DNA of 64,000 nt from Candidatus Buchananbacteria bacterium RIFCSPHIGHO2_02_FULL_39_17. GTDB taxonomy: Bacteria > Patescibacteriota > Patescibacteriia > Buchananbacterales > UBA6539. Below the pieces are notes generated by a model. That model did no database searches, was not told the DNA's origin, and saw only the letters and a program-made list of their open reading frames with translations. Below are positions 4,979 to 61,656 of the stretch, piece after piece (within the stretch, counting starts at the first letter, position 1; each line of letters starts with the position of its first letter). The DNA lies in NCBI GenBank assembly GCA_001817425.1, contig MHII01000012.1:77-64076 (forward strand). The letters are read 5' to 3'. Position numbers and translations under genes: made by a program.

Positions 4979-5428
4979 ATGATTAATTTTCAATTAGTTT
5001 TTAGAAATTATTTAGATCAGCACAAGCTTTTTAAACAGTTTGTCAAATTTTGTATTGTCGGTGGGACTTCGGCGGCATTTAATTTTTTGATTTACTATTC
5101 CGTGACGGAGTGGTTAGGGGTTTGGTACGTTTATTCTTCAATTGTTGCTTTTTTAATTTCTGCAGTATTTAATTTTTTGGCAAATAAAAACTGGACTTTT
5201 AGAAATACCGATATCGGCTGGGCGATGATAAACCAGTTAAGTAAATTCGCCACGGTGATGATCTCTGGCCTAATTATTAATACCGCCATTATTTATTTTT
5301 TAACTGATTGGTTCGGATTTGATTATCGTCTATCCTGGGTTTTTGCCACGGGCATAGTCACTTTTTGGAATTTTAGTTTCAATCGGTTTTGGACTTTTCG
5401 CCATCGTCAAAATTTATCCCTTGAATAA
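4979..5428 (+). CDS. GtrA family polysaccharide-synthesis membrane protein
   Basis: ~150 aa with 4 TM helices and the FVKFCIVGGTSAAFNFLIYY GtrA signature. Sits with GT2 and DUF2304 genes. Confidence 0.7.
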   Translation: MINFQLVFRNYLDQHKLFKQFVKFCIVGGTSAAFNFLIYYSVTEWLGVWYVYSSIVAFLISAVFNFLANKNWTFRNTDIGWAMINQLSKFATVMISGLIINTAIIYFLTDWFGFDYRLSWVFATGIVTFWNFSFNRFWTFRHRQNLSLE

Positions 5429-5526
5429 ATAAATTAGTTATTTTATAATTATAATAAAGGTTAAGATTAATACAGTGTTTGTTTAAAGGCATAAGATAAT
5501 ATTATACAAATTCATTTTGAGATTTT

Positions 5527-5560
5527 CCGCCCAAGGCGGATCCGCCTCTGGCGGAGAGGA
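5527..5560. mobile_element. GC-rich double-hairpin element, family 2, flanked by an 11-bp direct repeat
   Basis: ccgcccaaggcggatccgcctctggcggagagga lies between two copies of tttgagatttt (5516-5526 and 5561-5571). Confidence 0.65.
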
Positions 5561-5576
5561 TTTGAGATTTTAAACT

Positions 5577-6599
5577 ATGGCTAAAAAACCAATATTTGAA
5601 AAACCCAATATTTTAGTCACTGGCGGCGCTGGTTTTATCGGTTCGCACCTTTGCGACGAACTGATTAAAACCAGTAAAGTTATCTGCGTTGATAATTTTA
5701 TTTCCGGCGATGAAGTGAATATTGACCATTTGCTTCAGAATCCTGATTTTGAATTTATCAAACATGATATTAATCAACCTATTATTTTGGAAGATTATCG
5801 GGAATTGGAGAAATTCAAAATTAAATTTCAAGGGCTTCAGGAAATTTATCATCTGGCTTGCCCGACTTCACCGAAAGATTTTGAAAAAACAAAAATTGAA
5901 ACGGCTTTAGCTAATTCGGTTGGCACCAAAAATGTTTTGGATTTAGCCCTAAAATACAAAGCTAAATTTTTACTTGCTTCTTCGTCGGTCGTCTATGGCC
6001 CGAGAAACCAGAAAAATCTTTATTTTAAAGAAGATTATAACGGTGCAGTTAATCATTTGAGTCCCCGGGCTTGCTATGACGAGGGCAAAAGATTTGCTGA
6101 AACTTTGGCATGGACTTACGGTGAAGTTTATAATTTGGATACTAAAATTGCCAGAATTTTTCGGACCTATGGGCCTAAAATGAGACTAAAAACCGGCGAG
6201 ATGATTCCTGATTTTGTTTATAATGCCATCGAGGGAAGCGATTTGGTAATTTATGGGGATAAAAATTTTTCTTCTTCTTTTTGCCACGTGACTGATATTG
6301 TCGTTGGTTTAATGAAATTAATGAAGAGTTCGGAAAGCGGGCCATTTAATTTTGGCAGCGATATTGAATCAAAGTTAGTTGGTTTTGCCGAAAAAGTCAT
6401 TAACCTGACTGGTTCAAAATCAAAAATTATTTTTAAAGAGCCATTGCTTTTTATGACGCCGCTTGGCCTGCCGGATATTAGTTTAGCTAAAGAACGTTTA
6501 TCCTGGTTTCCCGTGGTTTTGCTTGATGAAGGCATTAAGGGGACGATTGATTATTTCAAAGCTTATCGGACGATTGTTCGCCCCGGCACTAAATTTTGA
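5577..6599 (+). CDS. NAD-dependent epimerase/dehydratase, UDP-glucuronate decarboxylase (UXS)-like
   Basis: Rossmann motif VTGGAGFIGSHLCDEL and SDR-family Y..K region (YDEGKR). Length and family fit UDP-xylose synthase-like enzymes. Confidence 0.65.
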   Translation: MAKKPIFEKPNILVTGGAGFIGSHLCDELIKTSKVICVDNFISGDEVNIDHLLQNPDFEFIKHDINQPIILEDYRELEKFKIKFQGLQEIYHLACPTSPKDFEKTKIETALANSVGTKNVLDLALKYKAKFLLASSSVVYGPRNQKNLYFKEDYNGAVNHLSPRACYDEGKRFAETLAWTYGEVYNLDTKIARIFRTYGPKMRLKTGEMIPDFVYNAIEGSDLVIYGDKNFSSSFCHVTDIVVGLMKLMKSSESGPFNFGSDIESKLVGFAEKVINLTGSKSKIIFKEPLLFMTPLGLPDISLAKERLSWFPVVLLDEGIKGTIDYFKAYRTIVRPGTKF

Positions 6600-8791: not shown

Positions 8792-8896
8792 GAAATAAAT
8801 TTTGAATTTTGAAATTTGAATTTTGAATCAATTTTGAATAACCGAATTTTGAAAAATTAAGATATTAGAATTTGAATCGAAATTCAAAATTAAAAA

Positions 8897-11866: not shown

Positions 11867-11961
11867 CCCTCTTAAGATAAGAGGGGAGAGGGGAGTTATG
11901 AGTGTAAGTTTTAAAAAATTAATAACCCCATCCACCTCCCCCTTAATTTAAGGGGGGAGAG
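11867..11961. mobile_element. MITE-like derivative (~95 bp) of the DUF559 element, with hairpin termini and no ORF
   Basis: The left end ccctcttaagataagaggggagaggggagttatgag and right end taaccccatccacctcccccttaatttaaggggggagag closely match the two ends of the DUF559 element at 61224-61656. Only ~20 bp lies between them here. Confidence 0.6.
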
Positions 11962-20341: not shown

Positions 20342-20428
20342 GTCAAAAATCAAAAATCAAAAGGCAAAAGTCAAAAGTTTAAGTCAAAATTCAAAAGCTG
20401 TAGTTTAATTACTTTTAACTTTTGAATT
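20342..20428. repeat. Partial copy of the caaaag-rich ~100-bp intergenic repeat that also flanks rmlA
   Basis: caaaaggcaaaagtcaaaag...acttttaacttttgaatt matches the start and end of the 22957-23059 arm. It ends ~6 bp before the HIT-gene ATG. Confidence 0.55.
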
Positions 20429-22098: not shown

Positions 22099-22953
22099 AT
22101 GGCCAATCAACGGAAAATCCTTATCCTTGGCGCAAACGGCATGCTGGGCCACGATCTGGCTGAAATTTTTTTTGATCAAAAACCAATTCTTTGGGATATG
22201 CCAAATCTTGATATTACTGATGAATTTGCGGTCAAACAAAAATTAGCTGATTTAATGCCTTCTTTAGTGATTAATGCCGCTGCCTATACTGACGTTGATG
22301 GTGCTCAAAATCAGCCAGATTTGGCGTTTAAGGTCAATGCCGACGCCATTGGCTACTTGGCAGTTGCCTGTCAGCAATTAGGGGCGATTTTGGTGCATTA
22401 CAGCACTGAATACGTTTTTTCCGGTAACAAGGATACTGGTTATCAAGAAGACGACAAAACTGATCCGTTAAATATTTATGGCCAGTCTAAAGCCAAAGGT
22501 GAAGAGATTTTAAAACAAAATTGTGAAATGTTTTATTTAATTCGTTCAAGCTGGCTTTACGGCCGTTCACCCCAAGTCGGCAAGCCGCGCGGCTTGAATT
22601 TCGTCCAAACTATGCTAAAATTGGCAGGTGAGGGTAAAGAGATTAATGTTGTTTCCGACCAGTTTGGCAAGCCGACTTATACTTTAGACTTAGCTAAAAA
22701 AACCCGGGAAATTATTGAAACTCAAAAGCCCTGCGGCATTTATCATGCGGTTAACGAAGGTGTTTGCAGCTGGTATGAATTTGCCAAAAAAATTTTTGAA
22801 ATAAAAAATATTTCCGCAAATTTAAATTCAATTAATTCAGATCAATATCCTTTGCCTACGCCACGGCCAAAATACAGCATTTTAGTTAACACCAAATTAG
22901 AGCCGTTGCGGAAGTGGGACGAGGCGTTGCGAGATTACCTACGGCAAAGTTAA
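22099..22953 (+). CDS. rmlD: dTDP-4-dehydrorhamnose reductase
   Basis: KILILGANGMLGHDL, YGQSKAKGEE, ~284 aa. Confidence 0.85.
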   Translation: MANQRKILILGANGMLGHDLAEIFFDQKPILWDMPNLDITDEFAVKQKLADLMPSLVINAAAYTDVDGAQNQPDLAFKVNADAIGYLAVACQQLGAILVHYSTEYVFSGNKDTGYQEDDKTDPLNIYGQSKAKGEEILKQNCEMFYLIRSSWLYGRSPQVGKPRGLNFVQTMLKLAGEGKEINVVSDQFGKPTYTLDLAKKTREIIETQKPCGIYHAVNEGVCSWYEFAKKIFEIKNISANLNSINSDQYPLPTPRPKYSILVNTKLEPLRKWDEALRDYLRQS

Positions 22954-22956
22954 AAG

Positions 22957-23059
22957 TCAAAAGGCAAAAGTCAAAATTGCAATTCAAAATTCAAAAGTAA
23001 AAAGTAATAATTTTGATTTTTAACTTGAACTTTTAATTTTTAACTTTTAACTTTTGAAT
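22957..23059. repeat. Left arm of the 103-bp inverted repeat enclosing rmlA
   Basis: Its reverse complement matches 23824-23926 at 102 of 103 positions. Built from caaaag/acttttaa units. Confidence 0.85.
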
Positions 23060-23064
23060 TTTTT

Positions 23065-23781
23065 ATGAAAGGCATAATTTTAGCCGGCGGGACCGGTTCG
23101 CGCTTGGATCCGCTGACTCGAGTCACCAATAAACATTTACTACCGATCTACGACCGGCCAATGATTTATTATCCGATTCAGACTTTAGTCAAAGCTGGCA
23201 TCACTGACATTATGATTGTTTCCGGCAAAGGCCATGCCGGGCAGTTTTTGGAATTACTTCAATCTGGTAAAGAATTGGGCGCGAAGTTTTCCTATGGCGT
23301 GCAAGAAGAAGCCGGCGGCATTGCCCAAGCCTTGGCCGTCTGCCAAGATTTTGCTGACAATGATAAAATTGTGGTAATGTTAGGCGATAATATTTTGCAA
23401 AATGATATTTCTAATGCCGTCAAAGATTTTGAAAAACAAGATAAGGGCTCAAAGATATTTTTAAAAGAAGTGGAAAATCCCAAATCTTTTGGCGTGGCGC
23501 AAATTGCCGGCGACAAAATCATTGAAATTGAAGAAAAACCAAAAAACCCCAAAACCAATTTAGCGGTTATTGGGGTTTATCTGTATGATAGTCAGGTTTG
23601 GCAAGTGATTAAAACTTTGAAACCTTCAGGGCGAGGCGAATTGGAAATCACTGATGTTAATAATTTTTACGTTAAAAAAGGGGAAATGACTTTTGAAATT
23701 TTGCGCGGCTGGTGGGGAGACGGAGGTGAGTCATTTGATAGTTTATTGGCGGCCGGGAATTTGGTTGCCAAGAAAAAATAA
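23065..23781 (+). CDS. rmlA: Glucose-1-phosphate thymidylyltransferase-like sugar-phosphate nucleotidyltransferase (short form)
   Basis: MKGIILAGGTGSRLDPLTRVTNKHLLPIYDRPMIYYPI is the nucleotidyltransferase signature. Adjacent to rmlB and rmlD. Confidence 0.7.
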   Translation: MKGIILAGGTGSRLDPLTRVTNKHLLPIYDRPMIYYPIQTLVKAGITDIMIVSGKGHAGQFLELLQSGKELGAKFSYGVQEEAGGIAQALAVCQDFADNDKIVVMLGDNILQNDISNAVKDFEKQDKGSKIFLKEVENPKSFGVAQIAGDKIIEIEEKPKNPKTNLAVIGVYLYDSQVWQVIKTLKPSGRGELEITDVNNFYVKKGEMTFEILRGWWGDGGESFDSLLAAGNLVAKKK

Positions 23782-23823
23782 TTTTTCAAGCACCAAATCC
23801 AAAATCACAAGCTCCAAATAATA

Positions 23824-23926
23824 ATTCAAAAGTTAAAAGTTAAAAATTAAAAGTTCAAGTTAAAAGTCAAAATTATTACTTTTTACTTTTGAATTTTGAA
23901 TTGCAATTTTGACTTTTGCCTTTTGA
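23824..23926. repeat. Right arm of the 103-bp inverted repeat enclosing rmlA
   Basis: Reverse complement of 22957-23059 with one mismatch. Confidence 0.85.
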
Positions 23927-23983
23927 ATTTTAACTTTGATGCTTATTTATAATTTGGAATTTATTTGAGATTTAATATTTCAA

Positions 23984-31477: not shown

Positions 31478-31497
31478 TGAAAAATAACTTCCTCTTT

Positions 31498-31545
31498 CTC
31501 CCCCTTAAATTAAGGGGGGGGGTGAGAGGGGGTTAAATTTCAAAA
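31498..31545. repeat. Hairpin element related to the DUF559-element termini
   Basis: ctcccccttaaattaaggggggg followed by gagagggggtta, cf. 11936-11959 and 61634-61656. Confidence 0.5.
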
Positions 31546-32595: not shown

Positions 32596-32645
32596 TAGAG
32601 ATAAAAATTAGCTTTTTAGCTTCCTTAGCTTTTTAGGTAAAAAAT

Positions 32646-32684
32646 CTACAAGCTACAAGCTACAAGCTACAAGCTACAAGCTAA
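32646..32684. repeat. Tandem heptamer (ctacaag)x5 immediately upstream of the pyrG start
   Basis: ctacaagctacaagctacaagctacaagctacaagcta ends 4 bp before the pyrG ATG. The same ctacaagct motif lies upstream of GT4 (10686-10705) and at the edges of the in-frame palindromic elements in murD and fpg. Confidence 0.8.
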
Positions 32685-32688
32685 AACT

Positions 32689-36811: not shown

Positions 36812-37336
36812 CTACGGTTTAATATTAATTGTTGCCTTAAAAGTAAAGTCGACATTGTCTTTTTTGAGCAAATTCTCTAAGGGGATGGCGACTTCCGCGA
36901 AAAGATTTGATTCTTCAAAATTTTCTTTTAACTGAATGAGATTTTGGCGAGTTTTGGCTAAACCCGTAATTAAAATTTTATTGTCTTTAATACTTAAATT
37001 GTATAAGCCAACATCAGCGGGGATGAGCTGGTTTAATTGTATAAAAAATTCTACCCAATCATGATAATTTTTCTGGATACTAATAACGGCACCGAGGTCT
37101 TGATTAAATTCTTTAATATCTTTATTAAAAATATTGGCATAACGGGTGGTCATTGTTGTTTGCGCAACGATTTGATTAAAATGGTTTTGCAGAATTAATT
37201 TAGTCATCAATAAAGCAATCGCGATAATAATTGTGATTAAAAGAATTAAGATGATTAAATCTTTAATCATCAGGTAAAGTTGGGTGAGGTGAAATTCTTG
37301 TTTTTTTACCGGTGGCAATAAATTAAGAGTGATCAT
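36812..37336 (-). CDS. pilN: Type IV pilus assembly protein PilN-like
   Basis: Short cytoplasmic N-terminus, one TM helix and a periplasmic domain. Overlaps the pilM stop. Confidence 0.5.
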   Translation of the reverse strand: MITLNLLPPVKKQEFHLTQLYLMIKDLIILILLITIIIAIALLMTKLILQNHFNQIVAQTTMTTRYANIFNKDIKEFNQDLGAVISIQKNYHDWVEFFIQLNQLIPADVGLYNLSIKDNKILITGLAKTRQNLIQLKENFEESNLFAEVAIPLENLLKKDNVDFTFKATINIKP

Positions 37337-38397
37337 ATAAATTTTTCTTTTTGTAAGCTTCTAAGGGCTAAACCGATGGCTGAAGTGTAAGATAAAATTT
37401 TATTTTTAGACAAGGAAATTTTTTTGTCTAAAGATAAATTATTTAGGGGATTTCCGATTTTAACCGGCAGGTTTAACATTTCTTTTAAAACTTCGTCAAT
37501 TTTAAGAAAATTAGCGCCACCGCCACAAATAATGATTTCACTAATTTCATTGCCGCTGACAAAATTAGTTTTATAGAAAATAATCGCTTTTTTTATTTGT
37601 TCGGCTAAATTATTTATTGATCCCATCAAAACTTTAAGCATCGCCCCTTCGCATTTTTCTCGATCAAGGCCGCAGACCAGTTTTGCTTTTTCGGCTTTTT
37701 TTTCATCCAGTTTGAGGGTTTTAGCGATTGCCTCAGTGATTTTATTACCTGAAATCGGCAGGCTGACCGTGAACTGAATCGTATTTTTGTCAAAAATAAT
37801 TAAGCCGGTTCGCATGGCTCCAAAATCGATAATAATCTTTGCCCCTTTTTCTTTTTCGGAAAGTAAACTTCTGACAATGGCGGCCGCTTCGATTTCTAAA
37901 ACATACGGCGTTAAGCCGCAATTCTGTAGAACTGAATAATAAGAATCAACTAGATTTTTCGGGGTGGCGCCAACTAAAACAGAAGACCAGTCACTGCCTT
38001 GTTCCAAGAGTTGCCAATCAAAATAGATTTCCTCTGGAGCAAGAGGAATATGATTAATAATTTCTTTTTCAATCAATTTTGGGGTTTCCTCCAAATTTTT
38101 TTTATTAATTTGGTTTGGTAGAGTTAGAACTTTAATAAAAGTTTTTGTTTCCGGCAAAACGGAAATAACATTTTTTGTTTTTATTTTTTGGCCAGCCGCA
38201 GTTTTAATCAGTTGTTGAATTAGTTTTATTAATTTATCCGGCTGTTGAATTTCACCATTAATAACAATATCATTTGGTACCGCTGATTCATTATAAGAAG
38301 TCAAGATTATTTTTTTGCCGATTTTTTTGCATTTTGCCAGTCTGATTGTTCGATCACTAAGATCTAAACCAAACGCCTGTTGCATTTGTCCAAACAT
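37333..38397 (-). CDS. pilM: Type IV pilus assembly protein PilM (actin-like ATPase fold)
   Basis: GLDLSDRTIRLAKCKK, IIIDFGAMRTGLIIFD and ICGGGANFLKIDEVL are PilM/FtsA-like motifs. Confidence 0.8.
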   Translation of the reverse strand: MFGQMQQAFGLDLSDRTIRLAKCKKIGKKIILTSYNESAVPNDIVINGEIQQPDKLIKLIQQLIKTAAGQKIKTKNVISVLPETKTFIKVLTLPNQINKKNLEETPKLIEKEIINHIPLAPEEIYFDWQLLEQGSDWSSVLVGATPKNLVDSYYSVLQNCGLTPYVLEIEAAAIVRSLLSEKEKGAKIIIDFGAMRTGLIIFDKNTIQFTVSLPISGNKITEAIAKTLKLDEKKAEKAKLVCGLDREKCEGAMLKVLMGSINNLAEQIKKAIIFYKTNFVSGNEISEIIICGGGANFLKIDEVLKEMLNLPVKIGNPLNNLSLDKKISLSKNKILSYTSAIGLALRSLQKEKFI

Positions 38398-38485: not shown

Positions 38486-38516
38486 CTCCGCCAGAGGCGG
38501 ACTCGCCTCTGGCGAG
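38486..38516. repeat. GC-rich double-hairpin element, family 2, inverted copy
   Basis: ctccgccagaggcggactcgcctctggcgag. Its reverse complement aligns with 5527-5560, sharing an identical second hairpin and a covarying first stem. Confidence 0.7.
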
Positions 38517-39731
38517 CTAATATTGTTCTTCCCAGTGATCAATTTGAATAATTGGTGCGGTGGTATTATAGCTTGGGTCAATTACCGGCAAAAAATTTTC
38601 CGGAACATAATTTAAAATAATTGAGCCGCCGCTGGCGGTGATCCGAGCGTCAAAACCAGTTAAGCTACCGTTAACCGTAAAATTTGTGCCCGAACTGGTT
38701 ATTTCCAAATCATCAGCCGCGTAAATTAGCCCATTAATAGTAATAGTGCCGCCGGCAGTGGTAAATTCCACGTCGTCTTTTGATAAAAGGCCGCCACCAT
38801 AGATTGGGTCAGCCGTCACCGTCACAATTTGGCCGGAGAGAGTGATTTCAATTTCTTCATCGGCGATTAAAACACCGTTAATCGTAAAATTTTTGCCGAT
38901 GATTTCCGCTTCACCCGTGACATAAATAATGCCATTTAAAGTCGTACCGCTAGGCAAATTTTTAAATTGAGTTTCGGTATAAACAGTGCCAGAGGCAAGA
39001 GCGCGGTTTTTCCAAGAATTCGGATCAGTTGAATCAAAATCAATTTGCAGCATATCAATCGTGGTCGTCGGCGCGCTTTGATAGCTCGTACCGTTTAGAG
39101 TTAAACGGCCGCCGGAAACAACATTAATCACATTGCTGGCGCTGACGATGCCGTCATTGACCACTACCTCCGCCCCTTGAACTTTAAAGACCTGATTGGC
39201 GTGGAGGCGGCCGCCGTTAGCCGTTAAGACAATGCCTGAACCAGTAAAAGTAAAATTGCCGTTTTGCTGGGAACCGCGGCCGCCAGCAAAAGAACTAAAT
39301 TCCCATTCTTCACTGCTACCAGTCGGCCGGGTGATATAAGATTTAACTACTCGTTGGGAAATGTTATCGGCAATTTGATAAGTTGAGGTGGAGATAATCC
39401 AAGCTTCAGCCGTGGCTGTGTTTTCTACTCTGACTTGATAACTGGCGTTCGTCTCGCCAAAAATATTTGTCCGGCTGATATTATTCGCGCTGCTTAAGGT
39501 GCCAGCGATAAAAGCATTTTTGGTTGCTTGATTGTTTTGAATTTTCCAAATCATTTCATTAATGCCGGTTTCCGCCAAATAATAATTTTTTGTCGCCAAA
39601 GATTGAACCACGGAAATCTTATTTTCCGAATTGGTTAATGACAAAAGATAAGAACCAGTCATTAAAAGAGCGGTTAAAGTTAAAATGGAAACGATTAAGA
39701 CAAAGCCCTGATTTTTTGTTTTTTTTGTCAT
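38517..39731 (-). CDS. Large prepilin-type (type IV pilin-like) protein
   Basis: N-terminal KNQGFVLIVSILTLTALLMTGSYLL is the class III signal plus hydrophobic helix, followed by a ~370 aa beta-rich domain. Confidence 0.6.
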   Translation of the reverse strand: MTKKTKNQGFVLIVSILTLTALLMTGSYLLSLTNSENKISVVQSLATKNYYLAETGINEMIWKIQNNQATKNAFIAGTLSSANNISRTNIFGETNASYQVRVENTATAEAWIISTSTYQIADNISQRVVKSYITRPTGSSEEWEFSSFAGGRGSQQNGNFTFTGSGIVLTANGGRLHANQVFKVQGAEVVVNDGIVSASNVINVVSGGRLTLNGTSYQSAPTTTIDMLQIDFDSTDPNSWKNRALASGTVYTETQFKNLPSGTTLNGIIYVTGEAEIIGKNFTINGVLIADEEIEITLSGQIVTVTADPIYGGGLLSKDDVEFTTAGGTITINGLIYAADDLEITSSGTNFTVNGSLTGFDARITASGGSIILNYVPENFLPVIDPSYNTTAPIIQIDHWEEQY

Positions 39732-44408: not shown

Positions 44409-44847
44409 GGAGTGAGATTTTAGGGAAACTCAGGATTGATTGAGATTTTCTTGCTTCCATATTATACCATAATTTTAATTTTTGGAGAAATTCAAAGCCA
44501 TTTGTAGTTGGTAAGCGGTCTATTTGGGTGGACAAATTGCCAAATTATTATTATGATAGTATTATCAAGACTCATCAATATGCCCCGATATCGAGCATCG
44601 GGGCTGGTTAATCTTTTCGCGGCCGGAAAAGTACCTCGTCCCCGCCTGCCGCCCGCCCGTTTTTAACTTCGCCAAAGGCGAGTGGGGGCGGGTCACCTTA
44701 ACACATTTTTTAAGATTAAAATGGTTTAGCTGGGTTTAAATTTTAGTTTTATAATCCCCAATTAAACAGGCATTGGCGGGCAGGCTGCCCGCCGGATCTG
44801 CTAACTGGCGGAGAAGGCGGATTAAGATGGAAAAAAATTATTAAATT

Positions 44848-49596: not shown

Positions 49597-51111
49597 ATGA
49601 ATTTCACGGGTAGAAAAGTGACGGTCATGGGTTTAGGGCTCCACGGTGGTGGAGTCTCTTGCGCTAACTGGCTGATAAAGCACGGCGCTAAAGTGACGGT
49701 GACTGATTTGAAAACCAAAGAAGAGCTTAAGCCATCTTTAGATAAGTTAGCGATCAAACGATCAAGCGATCAAACGATCAAGTTAGTGCTTGGATATCAC
49801 CGTGAAAATGATTTTAGAAATGCTGATCTAATTGTTCAAAACCCGGGTGTGCCAAGGGAATCAAAATATTTGGCAATTGCCAAAAAATCTGGCGTGCCAA
49901 TTGAAAATGAAGCCAGCCTTTTTTTTAAATATTGTCCGGCAAAAATTATCGGCGTCACAGGAACGCGTGGCAAATCAACCACGTCAAGCTTAATTTATCA
50001 ACTTCTAAAAGTTAAAAGCTATCCCGACGTAAAGTCGGGATCCCGACCGAAGCGTCGGGACAAACTACAAGCTCGTAAAGTCTGGCTGGCCGGACTGCCC
50101 CAAAAGCCGATGTTAGAAATTTTAGATCAAATTAAGCCTAATGATTTGGTGGTTTTAGAGCTTTCCAGCTGGCAATTAGAAATTTTAGGCGAACAAAAAT
50201 TAAGTCCGCAAATCGCGGTTCTGACTAATATTTATCCCGATCATTTAAATCGCTATTTGGGTATGGCTGATTACGTTAAAGCTAAAATCAACATTTTTCA
50301 GTGGCAAAATAAAAATGATTTTGTCGTTTTGAATTTAGATAATTTTGAAACAAAAAAACTTGGCGGAAAAGTCAGGGCCAAAAGATTTTTGTTTTCCAAA
50401 AAATATTTTGCCGAACAAAACGGCAGCTTTATTAAAAATAAACAAATTTTTTTCCGAAAAGACGGCAAAACTTACAAACTTACTAACTTATCAACTTATA
50501 AACTTATTGGCGAGCACAATTTAGAAAATTTTTTGGCCGCGATCACGGTTGCCGGAATTTTTGGTGTTAAACCAAAAGAAATAACGGCGGCTTTGAATAA
50601 GTTTAAGGGTTTGCCGGGGCGAATTGAGTTAATCAGGGAAAAAAACGGCGTAAAATATATTAATGACACAACCGCGACCACGCCTGATGCCACCATGGCC
50701 GCTCTAAAAATATTTTTAGAGCGGCAAATCCCAAATTCTAAATCCCAAACCCTAAGTAAATTCAAAATTCAAAATTCAAGATTCAAAATTATTCTGATAG
50801 CTGGAGGAGCGTCAAAAAATATTCCTATTCAAAAATATCAAGAGTTAGCCGCAATGATAAAAAAAACTTGTAAGGCCGTGATTCTATTTGAGGGGGAAGG
50901 GAGCGATCAGATGGCCAAAGATTTAAAGGCCATAAAATTTAGAGAATTAGTGACCAATGTTTTAGGGATGTCTTCAGCGGTTGGCATTGCTAATAATTTT
51001 TCGCAAACAGGCGATATCATTTTACTCTCTCCGTCTTCAGCTTCGTTTGGTTTGTTTATTAATGAATTTGATCAGGGTGATCAATTTAATAAGATAGTTT
51101 CTGATATTTAA
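49597..51111 (+). CDS. murD: UDP-N-acetylmuramoylalanine--D-glutamate ligase
   Basis: KVTVMGLGLHGGGVSCANWL, the P-loop GVTGTRGKSTTSSL, and the Mur ligase C-domain. Three in-frame repeat insertions: 49745-49778, 50011-50071 and 50757-50793. Confidence 0.85.
   Translation: MNFTGRKVTVMGLGLHGGGVSCANWLIKHGAKVTVTDLKTKEELKPSLDKLAIKRSSDQTIKLVLGYHRENDFRNADLIVQNPGVPRESKYLAIAKKSGVPIENEASLFFKYCPAKIIGVTGTRGKSTTSSLIYQLLKVKSYPDVKSGSRPKRRDKLQARKVWLAGLPQKPMLEILDQIKPNDLVVLELSSWQLEILGEQKLSPQIAVLTNIYPDHLNRYLGMADYVKAKINIFQWQNKNDFVVLNLDNFETKKLGGKVRAKRFLFSKKYFAEQNGSFIKNKQIFFRKDGKTYKLTNLSTYKLIGEHNLENFLAAITVAGIFGVKPKEITAALNKFKGLPGRIELIREKNGVKYINDTTATTPDATMAALKIFLERQIPNSKSQTLSKFKIQNSRFKIILIAGGASKNIPIQKYQELAAMIKKTCKAVILFEGEGSDQMAKDLKAIKFRELVTNVLGMSSAVGIANNFSQTGDIILLSPSSASFGLFINEFDQGDQFNKIVSDI
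50011..50071. mobile_element. GC-rich double-hairpin element, family 1, inserted in frame in murD
   Basis: aaaagctatcccgacgtaaagtcgggatcccgaccgaagcgtcgggacaaactacaagct has two hairpins sharing the tcccgac/gtcggga stem and ctacaagct at its edges. It encodes KSYPDVKSGSRPKRRDKLQA, which is absent from canonical MurD. Confidence 0.7.
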
Positions 51112-61249: not shown

Positions 61250-61656
61250 GGGAGTTATGAAGTATAATTATCATTATAATAACCATAAATTAAAAACTTT
61301 AAGACGAAACTTACGACAGAACCAAACTGATGCCAAAAAATTAATTTGGTCAAAACTTAGGAATAAACAATTAAATGATTTGAAATTTTATAGACAATAC
61401 AGTATTGGCTCGTATATTTTAGATTTTTATTGTCCTAAAAAGAGATTAGCGATAGAGATTGACGGCGGACAGCATAACGAAACAATTAATCTAAAAAAAG
61501 ATAATGTGCGATCAGAATATTTAAAACATCAGGACGTTAAGGTTATAAGATTTTAGAATAATGATATTATAAATAATTTAGAAGGAGTATTTGAAAAAAT
61601 TAAAGAAGCAGTATCGTTAATAACCCCCTCCATCTCCCCCTTATATTAAGGGGGAG
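61224..61656 (+). mobile_element. Mini mobile element with hairpin termini carrying a DUF559 (Vsr-like endonuclease-fold) gene
   Basis: The left end cccctcttaaaggtaagaggggttaggggagttATG and right end taaccccctccatctcccccttatattaagggggag are palindromic. The same two ends occur back to back at 11867-11961 without the ORF. Confidence 0.6.
61257..61649 (+). pseudogene. DUF559 endonuclease-domain gene interrupted by an in-frame TAG at the conserved RFW motif
   Basis: YRQYSIGSYILDFYCPKKRLAIEIDGGQHNE...DVKVIRF*NNDIINNLEGVFEKIKEAVSL. DUF559 proteins normally read RFWN followed by a tail, so TAG replaces the Trp codon. Confidence 0.55.

Follow-up and report, generated by a model that had tools for sequence, protein, structure and literature searches.

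Double-hairpin elements (DHEs) of Allomyces mitochondria (Paquin, Laforest and Lang 2000, cited in PMC2800124 and PMC4478555) are, as PMC2800124 portrays them, short and GC-rich sequences in an AT-rich genome that consist of two adjacent hairpins, lie in spacers and in genes, and lack flanking duplications. Yeast mitochondrial GC clusters (e.g. GC42; PMC4478555) combine conserved stems with variable loops, vary in copy number, turn over rapidly and have had endonucleases proposed as helpers. Rickettsia palindromic elements (RPEs; PMC1779305) are palindromic selfish DNA, open in all frames, that sits in frame in genes without destroying them, and palindromic amphipathic repeat coding elements (PARCELs; PMC2996958) are palindromic coding sequences giving similar peptides from either strand and moving horizontally among distant microbes. 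Here we describe a 30-nt GC-rich double hairpin that occurs at two sites in 64 kb of DNA from Candidatus Buchananbacteria bacterium RIFCSPHIGHO2_02_FULL_39_17 (hereafter the window: 64,000 nt of contig MHII01000012.1, positions 77 to 64,076 of the forward strand).

The element has the traits named above for the DHEs, RPEs and PARCELs, openness in all frames included, and it behaves like organellar double hairpins and GC clusters in its conserved stems, its variable loops and its dispersal through an AT-rich genome, genes included, and like the GC clusters in its varying copy number and rapid turnover; these mitochondrial systems, together with the RPEs, are its closest known counterparts in behaviour. 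It differs from the DHEs in being bacterial, of a fixed 30 nt, near-identical across phyla and strongly biased towards a frame that encodes a benign decapeptide, and the sequences are unrelated. The organellar elements are fungal or animal mitochondrial and confined to close relatives, whereas ours is found in bacterial metagenome-assembled genomes (MAGs) of many phyla. Unlike it, the GC clusters are species-restricted and flanked by short AG/ACT repeats read as target-site duplications (TSDs; PMC4478555), the RPEs are 100-150 bp long and known from Rickettsia only (PMC1779305), and the PARCELs, which code for amphipathic helices, are longer and repeat in tandem within genes instead of being single 30-nt hairpin units (PMC2996958).

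We consider it probable, at roughly 0.75, that both window sites are solo copies of a selfish insertion element, the 30-nt double hairpin, with near-identical copies across many uncultured lineages. The unit enters DNA as exactly 30 nt, normally without target duplication. An earlier note on this DNA had described copy 1 as a repeated, mobile-like double hairpin with compensated stems; that part stands, since the element is absent from orthologous spacers and occupies different sites in homologous genes, whereas its proposals of a TSD, as a trait of the element, and of kinship with transposase-mobilised bacterial palindromes (below) are not supported. The features of the two sites are as follows.

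5526-5555, no strand assigned: copy 1, the 30-nt double-hairpin core, TCCGCC-CAA-GGCGGA / TCCGCC-TCT-GGCGGA (58.5 bits, E 7e-18)
38487-38516, no strand assigned: copy 2 core, on the plus strand TCCGCC-AGA-GGCGGA / CTCGCC-TCT-GGCGAG (46.6 bits)
5516-5526, plus strand: left 11-nt direct repeat TTTGAGATTTT, whose last T doubles as the first core base
5556-5560, plus strand: GAGGA spacer from the core to the right repeat, its first three bases (GAG) also found at copy 2
5561-5571, plus strand: right 11-nt direct repeat TTTGAGATTTT, with an ATG 5 nt further on

A scan of one genome per species with the pattern YYCGCCNNNGGCGRRYYCGCCNNNGGCGRR returned at least 119 loci; this and all family counts below are among the matches listed. 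About a dozen matches, in GC-rich genomes, resemble chance or coding repeats. The others come from low-GC MAGs and single-amplified genomes that span many classes of Patescibacteria, Omnitrophota, the Planctomycetes-Verrucomicrobia-Chlamydiae (PVC) group (Kiritimatiellae, Verrucomicrobia, Lentisphaerae and Planctomycetes), Ignavibacteria, Bacteroidota, MAGs labelled Gammaproteobacteria, and others, and the hosts include long-read MAGs and one closed chromosome. The consensus of the 111 low-GC copies is TTT^TCCGCC-NRA-GGCGGA-TCCGCC-TYY-GGCGGA^AAA (^ marks an insertion boundary here and below), with loop positions 7, 8, 23 and 24 the only ones to vary freely; the TC/GA ends, A9, T22 and the flanks had been left open by the search pattern. 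Phages were rejected as vectors because 2.9 million viral contigs yielded about 3-5 genuine copies and the GenBank phage collection yielded none, and plasmids of cultured bacteria were rejected as carriers because their matches were at chance level only.

To read empty sites, we compared element-bearing tRNA gene remnants with intact tRNA paralogues beside them. At least 10 insertions could be resolved, and in every case exactly 30 nt had been inserted without duplication. The empty-site junctions were the following.

D-loop: CAGTT^GGTTA
D-loop: GGTTG^AAGGC
D-loop: GCT^CAG, GCT^CAA and GGCT^GAGT
Anticodon loop: CTTT^GAA
Anticodon loop: CTTTT^AAGG, at three tRNA-Lys loci
Anticodon stem/loop junction: AGTT^GGCT

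Insertion takes place after a T, in most cases after TT or TTT, and purines often come next. Besides spacers and the D- and anticodon loops of tRNA remnants, the element occupies the tips of other palindromes and lies in frame in protein genes. At low-GC loci, 49 of the 111 copies (at least 44%) fall within stop-free open reading frames (ORFs) of at least 250 aa, and 41 of these 49 are read in frame 0 as SAxGGSAxGG (frame split 41:4:4). Homologous proteins carry them as clean 10-aa insertions at differing positions, as in a RecG-like helicase, PyrG (CTP synthase), an Asx-tRNA synthetase-like protein and the C-terminal domain of the type IX secretion system (T9SS), in which the site NPF^NP was struck twice (L044, L070). 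Copies with a TGA in a loop were found outside long ORFs, with L044 as an exception. The frame bias and the avoidance of loop stops imply that the element is translated and not spliced out, and selection for a harmless, flexible peptide accounts best for the bias. A mini-intron removed at the RNA level was rejected on the same two grounds, loop stops being largely avoided in coding copies.

Two coding loci deserve separate mention. Around position 1239 of L044, a Bacteroidota T9SS C-terminal domain is broken by the element, whose loop 1 here contains an in-frame TGA; a pseudogene or recoding is possible. At 4828-7080 of L058, a Saccharibacteria ORF resembling valyl-tRNA synthetase has the element close to the N-terminus, includes a segment resembling a histidine phosphatase (RHGETDWN...) in mid-synthetase and ends soon after a KMS motif.

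Hairpin enumeration gave two perfect 6-bp stems with 3-nt loops at each window site. Copy 1 consists of TCCGCCcaaGGCGGA and TCCGCCtctGGCGGA, followed by GAGGA, and one hairpin of copy 2 carries a compensated CT/AG variant; copy 2 can alternatively form a single hairpin of 11-12 bp (enumeration and folding). DNA folding of copy 1 returned two hairpins, whereas RNA folding favoured one long interrupted hairpin. For the two outer pairs of a hairpin the search pattern permitted 16 combinations, and those observed were TC/GA (179), CC/GG (23, against 3.2 expected under independence), CT/AG (4, against 0.09) and TT/AA (1), with unpaired outer ends in 15 of 222 hairpins. The compensatory change from TC/GA to CT/AG that the earlier note had seen between the two copies is thus real and general, being borne out by the 111 family members.

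Under the two-hairpin model 99% of the alignment cells are paired; 91-94 copies have U-A as the outer pair, 14 have C-G and 2-4 have it broken, with 14 double changes per outer pair, a covariation reached by none of 500 shuffles. A single-long-hairpin model gave, at the same ends, 3 compensated pairs against 15 broken ones, which is not above shuffles, and the complementarity of loop 1 to loop 2 was at chance level for their composition. Covariation therefore supports two separate hairpins. One long hairpin, of the kind formed by inverted pairs of repetitive extragenic palindromic (REP) sequences, known as REPINs, was rejected on these pair counts, even though RNA thermodynamics alone favours it. 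G-T pairs were not favoured over C-A mismatches (1 versus 6), which hints weakly that the pairing takes place in DNA rather than RNA.

Searching the window with the family covariance model returned two full copies only (58.5 and 46.6 bits), the next match scoring 11 bits, against a background of 34-40% GC. The coordinates and sequence previously reported for copy 1 were correct, with TTTGAGATTTT at 5516-5526 and 5561-5571 and the hairpins between them. The unit that recurs is nonetheless not 34 bp but 30 nt, running from the last T of the left repeat (5526-5555) and leaving out GAGGA. The paralogue placed at 38486-38516 is a real second copy, with core bounds at 38487-38516. Outside the cores, the two copies share just GAG. 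As for their supposedly opposite orientation, the covariance model scored 46.6 versus 46.0 on the two strands of copy 2, and the 3-nt GAG tail alone favours an inverted arrangement; because the element is nearly its own reverse complement, the orientation of copies cannot be assigned.

Copy 1 lies in a spacer of 148 nt that has a GtrA-like gene (4979-5428) on one side and a UDP-sugar dehydratase/epimerase gene (5577-6599) on the other, both genes being on the plus strand; here the end of the core and GAGGA together make a Shine-Dalgarno-like GGAGAGGA 16 nt 5' of the ATG. Copy 2, in a type IV pilus gene cluster, adjoins the TAG stop (38517-38519) of a minus-strand ORF of 404 aa and is 90 nt upstream of pilM (37333-38397, minus strand). 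Any effect of the window copies on mRNA folding or translation would be a by-product. Both copies are fixed, with the same sequence in every strain-level contig. Three short metagenomic contigs from this strain (L009, L010 and L229) start or stop within the element, both window sites being affected, which fits a repeat at which short-read assembly breaks off.

We clustered all ORFs across the neighbourhoods of the 119 listed loci. The most recurrent neighbour family was a small GIY-YIG protein (PF01541), present at 12 of the 119 listed loci and no more than 200 nt from the element in 6. In the adjacent layout, a 5' tRNA fragment with the element in a loop is followed by 5-11 tRNA bases, the GIY-YIG ORF and an intact copy of the same tRNA. 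The reverse test took 80 metagenomic loci (L142-L221) encoding GIY-YIG nucleases of 80-100 aa, which came from a search with a three-sequence alignment. A same-strand tRNA gene lay within 300 nt at 62 of the 80, the ORF usually being immediately upstream of it; among 72 evaluable loci, 46 duplicate at least 12 nt of the tRNA region and 41 have a GC-rich hairpin within 150 nt upstream. In most loci the doubled part is a 5' segment of the tRNA that lies upstream of the nuclease gene. The hairpin YYCGCCnnnGGCGRR was found 16 times in the 80 nt upstream of GIY-YIG ORFs versus 16 times in all of the other 282 kb, which makes it 45-fold enriched before these ORFs (Poisson P 2e-21), and in the tRNA-gene cassettes it sits 9-60 nt 5' of the GIY-YIG start codon. 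Other palindromes also occupy this position, among them CCTGCCTGCCGGCAGGCAGG and the compensated TCAGCC/GGCTGA and CCAGCC/GGCTGG. The association between hairpin and GIY-YIG gene is solid.

One Allomyces DHE reportedly coincides with the edge of a mobile insertion that carries an endonuclease gene and doubles part of the gene it enters, a parallel to the GIY-YIG/tRNA cassettes. A further likeness is to SegB, a free-standing GIY-YIG homing endonuclease of phage T4 (PMC2330249), whose gene lies among or beside tRNA genes and whose flanking tRNA region is preferentially inherited. Unlike SegB, the proteins found here comprise 80-100 aa with the catalytic domain only and are chromosomal in uncultured bacteria, and their cassettes duplicate part of the target tRNA and have GC palindromes in the loops of the remnant. 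No description of this type of small GIY-YIG tRNA cassette was found in the literature searched.

We infer the following mechanism of mobilisation. The two hairpins, probably in single-stranded or extruded DNA, would be the recognition target of a mobilising enzyme that works in trans, for which the 80-100-aa GIY-YIG nucleases of tRNA-gene cassettes are the best candidates; that such a nuclease mobilises the solo units is likewise our inference. More tentatively, and with less than even confidence, we suggest that the 30-nt hairpin could be the DNA partner of an unrecognised mobile system, in which these nucleases would recognise or create a hairpin site, home into tRNA genes while bringing a replacement segment, scatter solo units, including in frame into essential genes, and cross between phyla that share habitats (Patescibacteria, Omnitrophota, PVC and others).

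Two sets of observations stand beside these cassettes. At nine loci (L142, L143, L158, L176, L186, L194, L195, L202 and L210) the tRNA remnant upstream of the GIY-YIG gene has a different palindrome of about 19-22 nt, of the form CCTGCCTGCC^GGCAGGCAGG, in its D-loop or its anticodon loop, where the double hairpin sits elsewhere. In the closed Kerfeldbacteria chromosome CP181398.1 (L067, 6650-7350), a tRNA-Gln remnant has three separate hairpin insertions: a degenerate single hairpin in the D-loop, an AT-richer double hairpin of 53 nt in the T arm, and, in the anticodon loop, the 30-nt core, which is present twice and flanks the GIY-YIG gene and the intact tRNA-Gln.

Several points weigh against reading the two sites as copies of a selfish element with a nuclease partner. 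CGCC/GGCG was fixed in the search pattern, which by construction accounts for some of the conservation seen, and related variants outside it do occur (TCAGCC/GGCTGA, CCAGCC/GGCTGG). The copy number read for this genome is that of the window, two per 64 kb. The window encodes neither a mobilising enzyme nor the GIY-YIG nuclease, and GIY-YIG genes are missing from the vicinity of most solo copies, the two window copies among them. Among close relatives no true empty site turned up, the nearest relative found having 81% protein identity. Finally, copy 1 carries its 11-nt flanking repeat, expected by chance at only 0.2-0.5% of positions, and a duplication at copy 1 itself is possible.

This last point is the substance of the rival that survives best, which takes the repeat as a genuine duplication, made either by a TSD-generating transposase or as the footprint of a cassette (direct repeat, hairpins, GIY-YIG gene, direct repeat) whose gene has since been lost. 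The repeat is indeed no ordinary chance match: TTTGAGATTTT has just two exact copies in the window, and flanks of 25 nt set 30 nt apart share a direct repeat of 10 nt or longer at 0.2% of window positions and 0.5% of those in AT-rich stretches. The 5-nt offset of the right repeat also recalls the GIY-YIG cassettes, in which a duplicated target segment of 12-47 nt surrounds hairpins and gene.

As a property of the element, the TSD fails on the family data: the at least 10 resolved insertions, all those that can be resolved, are exactly 30 nt and undoubled, and 93% of the 111 copies have no flanking repeat of at least 8 nt. Such repeats flank 6% of copies versus 1.7% of controls, all of them in short-period AT-rich arrays, and copy 2 has none. 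The flanks of copy 1 themselves read as an 8-nt periodic array, TTCATTTT GAGATTTT (core) GAGGATTT GAGATTTT.

Relatives with 76-81% protein identity keep the GtrA-dehydratase gene order, and their orthologous spacers, of 72-75 nt, have no GC element and contain their own short-period arrays just 5' of the ATG. The absence of the element there shows that it is an insertion; at the 81% protein identity of the nearest relative, the comparison yields this absence rather than an exact empty site. The shorter spacers would also suit a duplication, and in one relative (L130) the ATG is 11 nt past a shared CATTTT, as for a single-copy site. Given the exact, undoubled insertions elsewhere in the family, the 11-nt repeat is probably not a TSD; an 8-nt array in the leader of the dehydratase gene is its most likely explanation, insertion into such an existing array is clearly likelier than duplication, and we regard duplication as unlikely. 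Copy 1, as a selfish unit, would then have landed in this array. The two possibilities predict different empty sites, ...GAGATTT^GAGGATTTGAGATTTT... for an existing array and a single TTTGAGATTTT for a duplication. Elsewhere in the window, spacers abound in AT-rich arrays of short period (AAATTCAAAATTC, CAAGCTA, AAGAATC and the like), which return in both orientations, for example at 8794-8832, 20346-20397, 32633-32686 and 50726-50788.

The earlier note had also likened the element to REP/REPIN sequences, and a second rival holds that it is of this type and mobilised in trans by a REP-associated tyrosine transposase (RAYT, an IS200-like Y1 transposase) encoded elsewhere in the genome. REP sequences and the element do have in common GC-rich palindromes, doublets and a probable recognition of hairpins on single-stranded DNA (PMC5581495, PMC3184786); the two perfect 6-bp hairpins supply the palindromes, and insertion without a TSD is as in single-strand Y1 transposition. 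The window contains no Y1 transposase, as had been noted, which is weak evidence because RAYTs are single-copy. Y1_Tnp was detected in 2 of the 119 listed 8-kb neighbourhoods, L115 (122.6 bits) and L126 (27.8 bits), the latter being an Omnitrophota MAG with at least five copies of the element.

Unlike the element, known REPs are species-specific and extragenic and have a conserved 5' tetranucleotide; they are also tied to a RAYT gene that they flank (PMC5581495, PMC3184786). Here, MAGs of Patescibacteria, Omnitrophota, PVC, Bacteroidota/Ignavibacteria and others contain near-identical 30-mers. Both window copies lie outside genes, but the family as a whole does not, nearly half of its copies being coding and inserted cleanly in homologous proteins. 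The flanks are T-rich only, with no conserved 5' GTAG-like tetranucleotide; the pairing of the long REPIN hairpin is not kept; and the recurrent neighbours are GIY-YIG genes, Y1 genes being rare nearby. The assignment to REP/REPIN-RAYT is not supported, and we judge it improbable. Nor is the fixed-length TSD that marks every copy of a MITE (miniature inverted-repeat transposable element) found, and no parent insertion sequence for a palindromic element was detected in the neighbourhoods of the listed loci. By the tests applied, the element is not a member of the REP/RAYT group, of the MITEs or of any Rfam family.

Still less probable is a cis-acting RNA structure selected in place, be it a terminator, an attenuator, an mRNA stabiliser or a translational control. 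Both window copies are intergenic, one of them 16 nt 5' of a start codon and the other directly 3' of a stop codon, and both fold strongly (z -3.5 to -5.7). Against this, no U-tract follows the copies, orthologous spacers lack the element, stem sequence is conserved while loops vary, and the same 30 nt occur in coding regions and tRNA remnants of unrelated phyla. The window had no match in Rfam 15 at the gathering score and nothing relevant at permissive E-values, the best local scores being at most 17 bits against cut-offs of at least 40. An intrinsic terminator was rejected separately, since terminator and promoter scans showed no terminator-like site at either copy and the 3' flanks of the family are A-rich.

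A protein-binding signal, a DNA-uptake signal or a sequencing or assembly artefact, for which dyad symmetry, host lineages thought to be naturally competent and short contigs breaking inside the element might speak, is very improbable, because whole units lie in frame in genes, which is not how uptake sequences accumulate, with loop stop codons largely avoided in coding copies, because one sequence across phyla would be surprising in a lineage-specific signal, and because independent assemblies, among them the long-read MAGs and the closed chromosome, contain the element.

If the two window sites are indeed copies of a cross-phylum selfish element, a single stretch of 30 nt is a marker of genetic exchange between uncultured phyla that are very distant and live in shared habitats, and streamlined Patescibacteria genomes tolerate selfish insertions in aminoacyl-tRNA synthetases, CTP synthase and other core genes. 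The practical effects are a decapeptide added to annotated proteins, broken short-read contigs and disrupted tRNA gene calls. The statistical link to GIY-YIG genes offers a testable lead towards a nuclease that recognises structure and towards the way in which such hairpin elements move, a question still open for the mitochondrial counterparts. What appears new is the near-identity across phyla, the fixed 30-nt unit coding for a benign decapeptide from either strand, and the link to minimal GIY-YIG cassettes that target tRNA genes; the literature searched (Patescibacteria introns, rRNA insertions, gene exchange, prokaryotic MITEs) gave no description of the element, its coverage being incomplete and an earlier description possible.

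The window contains other repeats. A second palindromic family, ...CTCCCCCTT-AAnTT-AAGGGGGAG... with extended C/G-run arms, occurs at 11919-11956, 31481-31540 and 61617-61654, and two MAGs (L127 and L128) have the same CTCCCCCTT/AAGGGGGAG arms with the 30-nt core in the apex loop. Two low-complexity arms of 119 nt (AAAGTCAAAAG-type; 22945-23063 and 23820-23938), 97% complementary, flank an rmlA-like nucleotidyl transferase ORF (23065-23781) in an rml-type sugar gene cluster. A GC-rich intergenic region at 44570-44830 folds strongly (-99.7 kcal/mol, z -3.1) without an Rfam match, and one of its helices is capped by a single hairpin, TTCGCCAAAGGCGAG (44667-44681), which may be half an element or part of an unannotated RNA.
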